Positions 29,430 through 32,753 of a DNA stretch of 64,000 nt are shown here, piece by piece (the stretch's first letter is position 1; each line of letters starts with the position of its first letter). Made by a program: the position numbers and the translations under genes. Under the pieces are notes generated by a model, which was not told where the DNA came from, made no database searches, and saw nothing but the letters and a program-made list of their open reading frames with translations. The DNA is taken from positions 160,001 to 224,000 of the forward strand of contig CAVXZB010000084.1 in the NCBI GenBank assembly GCA_963765895.1, given 5' to 3'. Origin of the DNA: an uncultured Nitrososphaeraceae archaeon (GTDB taxonomy: Archaea; Thermoproteota; Nitrososphaeria; Nitrososphaerales; Nitrososphaeraceae).

Positions 29430-29940
29430 CTATTTTTGATCCAATGTGAGTCTTTGGTTAATATTTTCTTGTTCGTCGAATTTAGCTAACTCGGCTAAGA
29501 GAAATTCTTTGTATTTTTCCTTTTCTTGTTCAGTCATTCTATCCAAATTTGAACTGAGTGCAGATCCTATTGCAGAAACTCTATCGATTAGATCAAATGC
29601 CATAAATTTGCCCACATTTCCCACTCTTAACATTACATCTAATTGCTTTTGCATTATATTATGTAGAGATTTCATATCGGCGAGCTGTGTTCTCCCCAGA
29701 CGCTGTTGTCCTATATCTACCGTTTTCTACCTCATCAATTAGACCATCTTCTAGTAATCTTCCAAGCATAGGATATATCAAACCCGGAGAAGGTCTCCAT
29801 TTTCCGTCACTATCATTAATAGCTCTATCAATAATCTCCTTTCCTGTCATTGGCTGTTCTTTAAGTAAGCCCAAGACATAATGCCTAGAAAATCCTCTAG
29901 GAATAGAACTACCGACCCGAGAAAACCAGTGAGAAAGCAT
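29430..29940 (-). CDS. PadR family transcriptional regulator (indel near 29680)
   Basis: IPRGFSRHYVL...PMTGKEII...WRPSPGLIYPML; helical tail in the 29430-29675 frame. Confidence 0.85.
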
Positions 29941-29978
29941 ACCAATACTAATATCACTAGCGACAGTTATATTCTTTT

Positions 29979-29986
29979 CCTTAAAT
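29979..29986. repeat. Target-site duplication, left copy (CCTTAAAT); right copy at 32470-32477
   Basis: Identical 8-mer abuts each inverted repeat; the match extends to TCCTTAAATAGTT (29978-29990 and 32469-32481). Confidence 0.85.
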
Positions 29987-30054
29987 AGTTATGCTGCGAA
30001 AAACGACTGATTTCAACACCCGCTGCGGTTCGACTGGTTCAGGAGAACCGCTAA

Positions 30055-31245
30055 TTGTCGCCCTCAGAACAAGAACGTCATCTCACAGGAATCGCTATTG
30101 CACAGTTAGAATCGTCAATTAAACGTATCAATAAATTACGTTATAAAGTTAGATCACAATCAGACATCGAAAAATGGTACGACGTAGTAAAGGAATACGG
30201 CCACAATCTAGGTGGGCACCAGGATGGCAAGTGGACATGTACCTGCGCAGATTACTTATACAGAGGTCTTACTTGCAAACACATCTATGCAGTTTCGATA
30301 TCCAAGGAACTTCGCAAAAGAATTGTAGTAGAGGAATACCAGCCGTCGTCATTACCGGTATCGATAGAATGTCTTAGATGTAGATCAACTTCCATTAGCA
30401 AAGATGGAAGACGTAATAATAAGAGCGGATTTGCGCAAAAATATCTTTGTAAGGCATGCAATTATCGATTCATATCAAACATAGGCTTTGAACATTCACA
30501 GAAGAATCCTAAAGTAATTTGCGCGTCGATAGATCTCTATTTTAAGGGAGTTTCATTACGAAAAATCGCGCACCATATCAAACAATTCTACGACGTAGAA
30601 ATCCATAACACATCAGTTCTAAGATGGATTAGGCGTTTCGGTGAAGTGGTTTCGCCCTTCGTAGATGGGCTATCACCAAAGGTTAGTGGCATTTACCATG
30701 TGGATGAAATGATGATCCACACAAAACGTGAGCGATTAGAGATTGGGAATTATCAATGGCTGTGGAACCTGATGGACGATACTACGCGTTTCTGGATAAG
30801 CAGTATGGTGAGCCAGAGGCGTGAGTTAAATGATGCACGAAATGTTTTCAAGGATGCAAAACGCAAGATGAAAATTGCGAAGGCAATCATACATGATGGC
30901 TTACCGTCATACGACGGGGCGTTCCAGAAGGAATTGTACACATCCAAGAACCCTAGAGTTCGAAATATTAGAAGTATCTCCGTAAGAAATCAAGGGCTAA
31001 ACTCTAAGGTGGAAAGGCTAAACGGCACGATACGCGAACGCGAGAAAGTCATGCGAGGAATGCAACGGAAAGAAACCGCGCAGCAGATCGTTAACGCTAT
31101 GAGGATTCATTATAACTTCGTTAGAGAGCACCAAACATTACAGAAGACTCCGGCAGAGAAAGCAGGAATACGATTAGGTCTAGGTGGAAATAAAATCGAA
31201 AGTCTGATCCGACTAGCCAGTAAGAATAATCAGGGCCATCTATAG
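30055..31245 (+). CDS. DDE transposase with N-terminal SWIM finger, C4 Zn ribbon and HTH
   Basis: WTCTCADY...CKHIYAV (SWIM); CLRC...KDGRR...QKYLCKAC (InsA-like ribbon); GVSLRKIA...SVLRWI (HTH); YHVDEM / IHDGLPSY / KVERLNGTIRER (D-D-E). Confidence 0.93.
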   Translation: MSPSEQERHLTGIAIAQLESSIKRINKLRYKVRSQSDIEKWYDVVKEYGHNLGGHQDGKWTCTCADYLYRGLTCKHIYAVSISKELRKRIVVEEYQPSSLPVSIECLRCRSTSISKDGRRNNKSGFAQKYLCKACNYRFISNIGFEHSQKNPKVICASIDLYFKGVSLRKIAHHIKQFYDVEIHNTSVLRWIRRFGEVVSPFVDGLSPKVSGIYHVDEMMIHTKRERLEIGNYQWLWNLMDDTTRFWISSMVSQRRELNDARNVFKDAKRKMKIAKAIIHDGLPSYDGAFQKELYTSKNPRVRNIRSISVRNQGLNSKVERLNGTIREREKVMRGMQRKETAQQIVNAMRIHYNFVREHQTLQKTPAEKAGIRLGLGGNKIESLIRLASKNNQGHL

Positions 31246-31308
31246 ATGTATTATCGAACTAAGATAATTATAATTGTCTTAATATTAAGCACAATAGAAG
31301 CTCTGTTT

Positions 31309-31744
31309 ATGGTTGACTTCCTGGGATTGTTCGGAATTGCGAGCTACGATTTCGTTACCAATTGCGGCTGCTGTAATCGGAATTGGAATAGTTATTTGAC
31401 AGGAGTTAAGGAGGCAGGATAATAGATTCGCCCAGACCACCACCGAATTGAGAGATTTGAATAGATTTCTAACGAGTATAACTTTGAGTCAGATACAGGA
31501 GAAGATATCAGTCTTGCATAATTATTCCAATTCGCAGACTGAGGTTATTCAAGGTCATTTAGACACAATTATTTCAGATATTAGAGCATTACAGCACATA
31601 CGTGATTTGCTTACAGATCCACAAAGAGAGGAACTTGGTATCATAAGAGGCAGATTCGTTAACAGGTCGGATCTACCGGATATAGTAAATCGAATAAATG
31701 CAGCATTTGAAATTATTTTTTCCACGACTATTCGGGAGGTTTAA
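31309..31744 (+). pseudogene. Transposon cargo: single-pass membrane protein (~145 aa) with a frameshift near 31340 and an in-frame TGA at 31397
   Basis: ATG 31309 lies ~25 nt after TTAATATTAAG; reads MVDFLGLFGIA/ATISLPIAAAVIGIGIVI*QELRRQDNRFAQTTTELRDLNRF..., continuous with the 31448-31744 ORF. Confidence 0.65.
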
Positions 31745-31883
31745 TGGATTCTAAATGATGTCTGGCCGATTCTATTACGAATTCGGATACGGTGCGATAT
31801 GTCCCTAGCTTTTGAACCGCTACTTCGACGATTTTATCCGCCAATGGCTGAGGGATCTTTACTGTGGCATACTTGACTAACAT
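31728..31883 (-). CDS. Ribbon-helix-helix (CopG/Arc/MetJ) DNA-binding protein, 51 aa (not in ORF track)
   Basis: Hand translation MLVKYATVKIPQPLADKIVEVAVQKLGTYRTVSEFVIESARHHLESIKPPE: beta-strand TVKIP, helix, G-x-Y-x-T-V-S-E-F-V turn-helix; TATTAAAG about 25 nt upstream. Confidence 0.85.
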   Translation of the reverse strand: MLVKYATVKIPQPLADKIVEVAVQKLGTYRTVSEFVIESARHHLESIKPPE

Positions 31884-31949
31884 GAGAATAATATATGGAA
31901 TGAGACTTTAATACCTTTGTATATATCCTTATTCTGTAATAATGTTAGC

Positions 31950-32356
31950 TAACAAAGTATAAATATCGGCGTAGCTCATCCAAGACTCGGATGCAGAGCA
32001 AAGGCATGCCGATCGAAATTAGAAGAAAGACCAATTGGGGATCCCAATCCCAATGATCACATTGCTGGTTTTGTGACGTGATCGCAAGACTATTCGGGTA
32101 CATTGGCGCAATCGCTGGCGCACAGATAGGGAAGTACATATGCCGCGTCCTGTTTGTAGACAGGAAGTGACTTATGTAAACGAAACGTCCCCCGATAAGG
32201 GGGATATACTCTTTCTGATGAATAAATGTTTCTGTTTAATTTTTATCATAAATGTGGTGGGTTATGTAGCCGGTTGTTTGATTCATCATTACGGCTTTTC
32301 AGGCATCCATAGGACATATAGTTGGTATTTTCTTTCCAGACCCCTCTGGAATGGGG
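31950..32356 (+). ncRNA. Candidate structured non-coding RNA inside the transposon
   Basis: Chain of hairpins: 31965-32013, 32034-32054, 32055-32083, 32148-32165, 32187-32205, 32216-32288, 32341-32356; G-U pairs favour the + strand; TATATAT at 31920-31926 upstream; no convincing ORF. Confidence 0.4.
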
Positions 32357-32504
32357 ATGACATTTTATGGGTAAATATATATCCGAAGCAATGAGAGTTG
32401 TGAGTGCCATTTAATTCTTTCAGCCGAATTAGAGCAGTTATCTAAATCAGTCGATTGTGCAGCACAACTCCTTAAATAGTTCCGCATTAAAGAGGAAGCA
32501 TATA

Positions 32505-32753
32505 CTAATGATTTAGCGACTTTATTTGCCTTATTACCTCCCTTCCATGTAATTTCACCGACTCATCATTGGAATGGTTCAGAATCTCCGTGATAGGGTT
32601 TATTCCATCCCTCCCAAATGCTGCTATAGTATCGATAATTGTTTTTACTACCACTTCTTCATTATGATCAATAGCATTCTTTGTTAGTCTAGACAAATGA
32701 TCATTATTAGGAGATGTTTGTCTTATACTCTTTTTACTCTTTTTACTCTTCAT
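32505..32753 (-). CDS. Small helical (HEAT-like) hypothetical protein
   Basis: 82-aa ATG ORF, IIDTIAAFGRDGINPITEIL...VKLHGREVIRQIK. Confidence 0.6.
   Translation of the reverse strand: MKSKKSKKSIRQTSPNNDHLSRLTKNAIDHNEEVVVKTIIDTIAAFGRDGINPITEILNHSNDESVKLHGREVIRQIKSLNH

Follow-up and report, generated by a model that had tools for sequence, protein, structure and literature searches.

A cargo-carrying, probably IS6-like transposon in a Nitrososphaeraceae archaeon belongs to a clade that inserts at a fixed distance from TATA boxes

The window analyzed here is a stretch of 64,000 nucleotides from an uncultured Nitrososphaeraceae archaeon (assembly GCA_963765895.1, contig CAVXZB010000084.1, positions 160,001 to 224,000 of the forward strand). 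It contains a 2483-bp element (29987-32469) that carries a transposase gene and passenger DNA and is abutted on both sides by CCTTAAAT (Table 1). The left end (27 nt) is AGTTATGCTGC-GAAAAA-CGACTGATTT, and the right end (26 nt) is, as its reverse complement, AGTTGTGCTGC-ACAAT-CGACTGATTT. The two ends share 21 matching bases in two blocks, an outer box of 11 nt with one mismatch and an identical inner box of 10 nt, and differ in length by 1 nt, with spacers of 6 and 5 nt. The right end is 78-81% similar to ends in locus L066 and in contig C83 of genome G023. An initial annotation had described a complete transposon with inverted ends and an 8-bp duplication, about twice as long as its transposase gene, and these boundaries, together with empty sites in related genomes, back that description.

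Table 1. Features at and around the element (positions in the window; E, expectation value; aa, amino acids)
Feature	Position	Strand	Basis
padR-family regulator gene, 93 aa, host gene outside the element	29659-29940	-	Pfam PadR, E 6.3e-11
Imperfect palindrome GTCGCTAGTGATA between the TATA-like box and the padR start codon	29952-29964	-	recurs at padR-type promoters in other genera
padR promoter core: AAAAG like the transcription factor B recognition element (BRE), 29974-29978, and TATA-like AATATAAC, 29966-29973	29966-29978	-	sequence, position
Left copy of the 8-bp target-site duplication CCTTAAAT	29979-29986		window sequence; single copy in the G004 empty site
Left terminal inverted repeat AGTTATGCTGCGAAAAACGACTGATTT	29987-30013	+	sequence; aligns with subfamily ends AGTTCTGCTGCAAAGACGACTGATTTC
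Transposase gene, 396 aa, TTG start	30055-31245	+	Pfam SWIM, DDE_Tnp_IS240 and rve_3 above threshold
Broken accessory gene, two-helix membrane and coiled-coil protein	31246-31744	+	tblastx/tblastn to G006 and L082 genes
Small ribbon-helix-helix (RHH)-type gene, 51 aa, intact	31728-31883	-	homologues, AlphaFold model
Orphan 560 bp with short unconserved open reading frames (ORFs) of 64 aa (-) and 84 aa (+)	31884-32443		no matches
Right terminal inverted repeat, reverse complement AGTTGTGCTGCACAATCGACTGATTT	32444-32469	-	window sequence
Right copy of the target-site duplication CCTTAAAT	32470-32477		window sequence, repeat finder
Host flank AGTTCCGCATTAAAGAGG, possible stump of an older family end	32478-32495	+	7/8 bases equal to subfamily end AGTTCTGC
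ORF of 82 aa right of the element, 73-79% DNA identity in same-genus genomes	32505-32753	-	no Pfam or NCBIfam match

A 5.9-kb query over the locus matched G004, a genome of the same genus, in two pieces that ended at 29990 and 32469 and overlapped by 13 nt. This genome has the empty site ...TTTCCTTAAATAGTTCCGC... (TATATTCCTTTCCTTAAATAGTTCCGCAAAGAGG) between flanks that are 96-97% identical to those of the window. G003, also of the same genus, has an empty site as well, TTTTCCTCAGATAGTTACG, which is more diverged (flanks 84-93% identical). Lack of an empty-site allele in relatives had been named at the outset as grounds for rejecting the transposon, and the allele is present in both genomes. 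Positions 29987-32469 are one DNA-transposon insertion, which is not present at the matching site of two same-genus genomes. At the DNA level the element is single-copy in the source genome (4.9 Mb, 88 contigs). Contigs from four soil runs cover it at 99% or more; the runs come from one study, possibly from the source sample, so they are not independent. No contig of these runs joined across an empty site. One of the soil contigs has one A fewer in the A-run of the left end, at 29998, so that both ends are of equal length. The single-base differences between soil contigs and window, at 29998 and 31341, are strain variants or assembly homopolymer errors.

The repeat finder returned a direct repeat of 13 nt, TCCTTAAATAGTT, at 29978-29990 and 32469-32481. 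The sequence at the junctions would fit a 10-bp duplication with GTT...AAC ends as well as one of 8 bp, and 8 bp is preferred because 51 relatives all show 8 bp. The AGTT that follows the right duplication also occurs in both empty sites, G004 and G003, and next to an element of genome G006. The repeat thus extends to 13 nt because the host flank itself starts with AGTT, possibly as an old stump. Exactly 8 bp from the element, this flank, AGTTCCGC..., agrees with the subfamily end AGTTCTGC in 7/8 bases. It may be the stump of an earlier tenant of the same family, which is unproven, as only 7/10 bases match the best real end. An end-like 20-mer, AATTATGCAAGACTGATATC, at 31504-31523 on the minus strand was considered as the mark of a hidden compact insertion sequence and rejected. 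Its box spacing is wrong, no duplication adjoins it, and its position falls within the conserved reading frame of the coiled-coil protein.

The transposase consists of a SWIM zinc finger (residues 57-84), a zinc ribbon (106-135) and an IS6-like helix-turn-helix and DDE core (145-357). Pfam SWIM (PF04434, CxCxnCxH signature) scored 29.1 bits at residues 57-84 against a cut-off of 19.6, and DDE_Tnp_IS240 scored 42.4 bits at residues 215-358 against a cut-off of 27, in agreement with the SWIM and DDE domains first read in the 396-aa product. The ribbon gave a weak InsA-type match in Pfam (residues 102-135), and IS1/IS1595-type and IS256-type NCBIfam models match it just under their cut-offs. The best NCBIfam match was IS6 (NF033587, E 5.9e-26), the whole model (1-202/202) being covered by residues 145-357. 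By tblastn, the nearest annotated plasmid genes encode IS6 or ISCpe7-family transposases with 24-27% identity over the core only. Invariant residues were read from an alignment of seven sequences, the transposase and six relatives. It has 61 invariant columns, all of which are kept in the 396-aa protein, including C62, C64, C74 and H76 of the SWIM finger, C106, C109, C132 and C135 of the ribbon, and D217 and D281. The putative catalytic triad is D217, D281 and E320, the last followed seven residues on by R327. E320 is not invariant, as a paralogue on contig C36 of the source genome carries K there. Full-length relatives with 89% and 81% identity occur in metagenomes.

Judged by its transposase, the 2483-bp element belongs to a large archaeal clade. 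At least 532 confirmed stretches in species-representative genomes and at least 561 in metagenome contigs encode relatives of the transposase, and a protein search returned 1373. Named hosts are Nitrososphaeria, Bathyarchaeia, Hadarchaeota, Thermoplasmatota, Methanoregula, Methanosarcinales and Methanoperedens. Elements were bounded by an inverted-repeat search in which a perfect 8-bp duplication was required. In the genome set 27/79 loci were bounded, and with L124 this gave 28 full-size elements, plus a 166-bp miniature in G023. In the metagenome set 24/80 loci were bounded, of which 2 duplicated genome loci and were dropped, leaving 22. All 51 bounded relatives have perfect 8-bp duplications. 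Their ends, GGTTCTG... or AGTTCTG..., are in many cases perfect for 20-60 nt, and those of the subfamily closest to the 2483-bp element are AGTTCTGCTGCAAAGACGACTGATTTC. The AGTT ends, first taken as the sign of a distinct type of transposon, are a variant of this (G/A)GTTCTG... end.

Full-size elements, the 2483-bp element included, are 2216-6928 bp long with a median of 3201 bp (n = 51). No compact member was found among these 51, and extra genes are present in all. Homologues ending directly after the transposase stop had been named as evidence against the proposed cargo-carrying transposon. No element of that compact kind was seen, but four relatives (L068, L096, L163 and L195) do end 52-65 nt past the stop, with their extra genes upstream instead.

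A small ORF lies directly upstream of the transposase gene and diverges from it in 25/31 elements. It falls into AbrB-like clusters, in which 7/8 tested members match MazE/AbrB (PF04014), 3 of them above threshold, and RHH-like clusters, in which 8/10 tested members match RHH families, all below threshold. Because two unrelated DNA-binding folds occupy the same position, we infer that this small gene is a regulator of the element. The other cargo varies around it, as the initial annotation had proposed to check. It includes restriction-modification genes (DNA methylases and type I, IIG and Mrr-type restriction parts), AAA_15/AAA_21 ATPases, and ParB-DUF488, SocA/Panacea, HEPN, NYN and PIN domains. 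Further cargo consists of Holliday-junction-resolvase-like nucleases, proteasome-like and CAP-domain proteins and many ORFs without a family. Members of the clade carry up to 6 ORFs of at least 100 aa each. The small regulator and a neighboring ORF of about 150 aa were considered as a toxin-antitoxin pair. This was rejected, since no toxin domains occur in these ORFs and BLAST found them unlike one another.

Three members of the clade illustrate its range. The source genome (G000) has a second family element on contig C36 (L003, 468-3358), 2891 bp long, with ends GGTTCTGTCAAC... and duplication CAATTTTT. It has an AbrB-like small gene, and its transposase is 39% identical to the 396-aa transposase. 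The miniature of 166 bp (L125, 1273-1438, on G023 contig C83) consists of two subfamily ends with the 8-bp duplication ACTTGCTC and adjoins a promoter with a padR-type palindrome. The longest, 6928 bp (L124, 1949-8876, on G019 contig C1), has a transposase of 64% identity, the duplication ATCGCTCT and a 975-aa restriction-modification gene of the Eco57I/MmeI type.

The profile of the left flank in 30 elements, read from the duplication outward, is AAAnnTTTATATA. Position +3 is A in 19 of these flanks, +8 is T in 20, +9 is A in 21 and +11 is A in 23. The flanks were then scored against TTTAWATA, which we take to be the archaeal TATA consensus. A flank passed if at least 6/8 bases matched at exactly offset 5 from the duplication, and offsets 15-139 served as background. 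In the genome set 19/60 flanks passed compared with 143/7281 background positions (binomial P = 3.5e-18). The independent metagenome set gave 10/44 flanks compared with 57/4908 background positions (binomial P = 7.7e-11). Counted by element over offsets 4-6, 21/30 passed in the genome set (2-9 in control windows) and 13/22 in the metagenome set (0-2 in control windows). At the stricter level of at least 7/8 matches, 9 left and 2 right flanks passed at offset 5, and no other offset from 0 to 39 had more than 1 per side. The insertion rule of the clade is 8 duplicated bases, then 5 bases, then a TATA box.

An outward ORF begins no more than 90 nt from the TATA start in 25/41 TATA-positive flanks, most commonly at 29-41 nt. 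N-terminal residues read by eye suggest that the genes behind these promoters encode thermosome subunits (three times), transcription factor B (TFB), ribosomal protein L11 and PadR-type regulators. The three insertions upstream of thermosome-like genes (L093, L116 and L119; assigned by N-terminal sequence) are independent. The C36 element of the source genome lies 5 bp from the TATA box TTAATATA. In 20 flanks the TATA box lies on the side upstream of the transposase, and in 9 on the opposite side; an orientation rule was rejected, as these numbers make only a trend. At least 7/52 elements abut another family end at exactly 8 bp, the outcome expected of repeated use of one 8-bp target. Stacks of family ends and stumps with the same 8 bp between them were seen in L137 (about 800-1970), on both flanks of L180 and in L127 (about 430-450). 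L137 has GAAGAAGA three times, and such stacks look like successive insertions into one target.

The 2483-bp element lies at the promoter of a padR gene, which also adjoins the empty site in G004 and G003. A TATA-like box, AATATAAC, starts 33 nt before the padR ATG, in the position of the TATA signal found across the family. The insertion left the BRE and TATA box, the palindrome, the start codon and 13 bp upstream of the TATA box intact. The palindrome is probably the PadR operator, likely autoregulatory. The same padR position is occupied by other elements in other genomes. G006 has a 3073-bp element there with ends AGTCCTGTTGCAATCTCGGG and duplication TCCTCAAG, and G005 has a 2180-bp relative of it with duplication CCTTAGAA. 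G002 has a 2837-bp element with ends GGTTCTGTTAACTT and duplication TCCTCGTG, and in a soil contig with a flank about 95% identical a G002-type end stands directly against CCTTAAAT. In several genera, padR-type genes have the palindrome TCACTAGTGATAT behind their TATA box (L045, L048, L064, L066, L125, L127, L129, L130 and L165). Promoters of padR type with this palindrome are struck by family ends unusually often, including those of several other genera.

The passenger DNA of this copy was examined gene by gene. Next to the transposase gene lies what the initial annotation called a membrane-protein gene; the gene is broken, and the 58-aa ORF that was noticed is only its front fragment. It has a TGA at 31397-31399 where the G006 and L082 relatives have Trp, and a 1-nt frameshift near 31341. 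The frameshift is absent from contigs of two soil runs, which have one base fewer at 31341, but the stop remains in them. The G006 element has a homologue with 31% identity over 113 aa (E 8e-13) whose stop lies elsewhere, and the aligned part of the L082 homologue is without a stop.

The 51-aa RHH-type gene converges on the transposase gene, whereas the small gene of most relatives diverges from it. The protein has 10 homologues with 67-96% identity, three of which are named Arc/MetJ-type RHH by JGI. Its AlphaFold model, built from the homologue alignment, has a mean predicted local distance difference test (pLDDT) score of 73.8 and shows an extended N-terminus followed by helices at 12-26 and 32-46. 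Regulators of the RHH kind (Arc/MetJ/CopG) have about 45 residues arranged as strand, helix and helix, and form dimers via the N-terminal strand. The names of the homologues and the layout of the model support the RHH regulator first proposed, but do not prove it, the fold matches of the model being non-significant. As such it would be the element's own regulator. L166 has an RHH gene of 41% identity in the same relative place, 1.8 kb downstream of its family transposase. The orphan 560 bp gave no Pfam match, and neither 40 relatives nor the fetched loci contain anything similar. A structured region and possible RNA module had been proposed here, and neither proposal is supported. An Rfam scan of 29900-32600 found only RAGATH-25, below threshold (19.6 bits and E 0.12, the gathering score being 49), and 31884-32180 on either strand folded no better than shuffled sequence (z of -1.8 and -1.35, with 10 and 20 of 200 shuffles folding at least equally well).

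In the cited parts of two reviews, by Varani et al. 2021 (PMC7986276) and Harmer and Hall 2019 (PMC6807381), IS6 elements have ends that are "generally perfect" (PMC7986276), and the features conserved in them are GG at positions 1-2 and a G at position 7 (PMC6807381). Members are mostly 700-890 bp long with one gene, and the archaeal ones in ISfinder are short; in the whole family, ISDsp3 is the single member said to have a passenger gene (PMC7986276). According to the same parts of PMC6807381, there are no experimental data for archaeal or long IS6-like elements. The archaeal clade resembles IS6/IS26 in its 8-bp duplication, and the DDE transposase of the 2483-bp copy matches IS6-type models (DDE_Tnp_IS240 above the cut-off, NCBIfam IS6 below it). 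Its ends are (G/A)GTTCTG, and those of the 2483-bp copy, AGTTATG and AGTTGTG, keep G7 and have A at position 1. Unlike IS6/IS26, the repeats of this copy are imperfect (21 matches and a gap), and the clade is 2.2-6.9 kb long, always with extra genes rather than compact with a single gene. The 396-aa transposase adds a SWIM finger and zinc ribbon and scores below the NCBI cut-off for IS6. The fixed distance from a TATA box is a further difference, not being mentioned for IS6 in those parts of PMC7986276 and PMC6807381.

The long IS6-like elements of clostridia, the ISCpe7 group (clades h/i in PMC7986276, VII/VIII in PMC6807381), are described in the same parts of the two reviews as bacterial, 1.2-1.8 kb long, with transposases of 340-450 aa that are extended at the N-terminus by a zinc finger. 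In tblastn they rank among the best annotated matches (E 7e-13 to 2e-11, 27% identity). The similarity is confined to residues 154-372, the N-terminal SWIM finger and zinc ribbon being unaligned, and cargo is not described for these elements in the parts cited. For thaumarchaea, the survey of Krupovic et al. 2019 (PMC6563490) names IS6 among the insertion sequences, gives IS-like transposons as having 1 or 2 genes, and states that transposons with passenger genes were undetected in archaea, thaumarchaea included. The supplementary tables of that survey may list some copies of the clade. The hosts are the same, but the clade carries up to 6 ORFs of at least 100 aa, including restriction-modification genes. 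Full-text literature searches, mostly without subscription journals, returned no report of SWIM-bearing IS6-like transposases in archaea and no description of TATA-directed insertion of archaeal transposons.

Taken jointly, the observations make it likely that the 2483-bp element is an IS6-like, SWIM-bearing cargo transposon of an archaeal clade that inserts at a fixed distance from promoters. Transposition would be IS6-like. The DDE enzyme would bind the two-box end (outer AGTT.TGCTGC, inner CGACTGATTT) and cut the target with a stagger of 8 bp, probably by a copy-in/cointegrate route. The insertion point would be set by a promoter feature that the transposase reads, either TATA/BRE DNA or the bound complex of TATA-binding protein (TBP) and TFB. 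Landing one BRE-length upstream would keep the host gene working, so that such promoters would serve as safe havens.

Several points weigh against this reading. The IS6 assignment of the transposase is one of distant similarity only, as its NCBIfam score for IS6 is 91.4 bits against a cut-off of 125, with IS1 second at 60 bits, and the NCBI label for its relatives is only "DDE-type integrase/transposase/recombinase". The copy-in route is borrowed by analogy from IS26-type elements. The ends of this copy are imperfect, and position 5 differs in both from the otherwise conserved C of the clade. Its RHH-type gene is in an atypical place. The 51-aa ORF has no match in Pfam or NCBIfam and gave a weak profile match to the RHH genes of the family (hhalign E 0.013, probability 3%), and the sole two fold matches of its model in the PDB, NikR (E 2.4) and Arc (E 3.9), are both non-significant. 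The padR promoter is assigned by position, 33 nt before the ATG, and by conservation, and its TATA-like box matches strict TTTAWATA at only 4/8 positions. Left out of the clade statistics as not bounded were 52/79 genome loci and 56/80 metagenome loci (contig ends, imperfect repeats). In 16/52 elements, the 2483-bp element included, both the TATA and the adjacent-end tests failed. Finally, targeting is inferred from surviving insertions, and selection against harmful insertions must contribute.

How the promoter would be read can be pictured in two ways. Recognition may be of DNA only, the transposase reading the TATA/BRE sequence or its bendability without a host transcription factor, and the 5-bp spacing reflecting how the transposase seats itself. 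We regard this as quite possible, if short of an even chance. Many transposases have sequence or DNA-shape preferences, and the signal observed is a sequence motif at a fixed offset, so that the data require no protein partner. Against it, TATA-like 8-mers occur at 1-2% of flank positions, so hits outside promoters would be expected often; yet 25/41 TATA-positive flanks have an ORF at a promoter-like distance, and the same few promoters (padR, thermosome) are struck repeatedly. Selection could explain both. Alternatively, and only tentatively, the transposase, perhaps via its SWIM finger or N-terminal part, docks on TBP/TFB at the BRE and TATA box and integrates one BRE-length upstream. Among retrotransposons, Ty3 integrates at RNA polymerase III start sites, and Ty1 and Tf1 upstream of promoters. 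These offer an analogy rather than a family relationship. As in the clade, they integrate at a set place beside a binding site of the initiation machinery, the gene is spared and sites are reused. Unlike the IS6-like DDE transposase of the clade, they use a retroviral-type integrase, and the enzymes and mechanisms are unrelated.

The state of the 2483-bp copy is a separate matter. It appears partly decayed, with a broken accessory gene, 560 orphan bp and a single copy in the genome, and its transposase looks intact. A stronger version holds that it is a dead relic, a once-typical member that lost its upstream module and whose 1.2 kb of "cargo" is functionless, decaying DNA. In that case the element first noticed would be no more than a common, degenerate insertion sequence. 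Besides the single copy, the broken membrane/coiled-coil gene and the 560 orphan bases, the imperfect ends with a non-consensus base at position 5 favor this. So does the left side of the element, where the transposase start is only 68 nt from the end with no evident promoter between, compared with mostly 0.8-1.3 kb, and up to 4.6 kb, in relatives. We nevertheless find this version doubtful. The transposase ORF is intact with all 61 invariant columns kept, its 89%- and 81%-identical relatives in metagenomes are full-length, and the RHH gene, likewise intact, is conserved in 10 homologues. The insertion is also younger than the split from G004, which has flanks 96% identical. In a soil contig, the end of another element has the same first 14 bases, AGTTATGCTGCGAA, and because of this the odd A at position 5 reads as a variant in use rather than as decay. 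An attempt to derive the gene order, with the transposase far left and the RHH gene downstream, from the typical order by one inversion or deletion did not succeed.

Absence of any targeting, with a preference for AT-rich DNA and survival of those insertions that spare genes and promoters, is improbable. All of the data do come from surviving insertions, and intergenic DNA upstream of promoters is AT-rich and tolerant of insertion. However, selection would permit any position farther upstream, yet the TATA match is limited to one offset, and this single-offset pattern recurs in the metagenome set. Different elements also use the same 8 bp at the padR promoter, and neighbors are spaced at exactly 8 bp. 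Least probable by far is that the repeat TCCTTAAATAGTT is the core of an attachment site (att) for site-specific recombination and the segment an integrated island, for although 13 nt exceeds a typical duplication, the extra AGTT is host flank seen in the empty sites, no integrase or recombinase gene lies within the segment, and the inverted ends match in type those of 51 relatives, whose duplications are all 8 bp long and unrelated in sequence.

An IS6-like cargo transposon that inserts by a promoter rule would matter in several ways. For annotation, odd "long direct repeats" at such elements may be a duplication plus the stump of an earlier tenant. The fixed TATA distance is a simple, testable rule, and possible uses in archaea are promoter mapping and targeted insertion. 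The cargo clade is widespread in archaea, often with restriction-modification or further defense-type genes, and may move defense systems between archaeal genomes. If the rule reflects recognition of the transcription machinery, transposition would be tied to promoter architecture in a domain with eukaryote-like transcription. If docking on the pre-initiation complex is true, the clade would be an archaeal counterpart of Ty3-type promoter-directed integration, in which cargo transposons have safe landing sites, stack at the same 8 bp and act as natural markers of active promoters.

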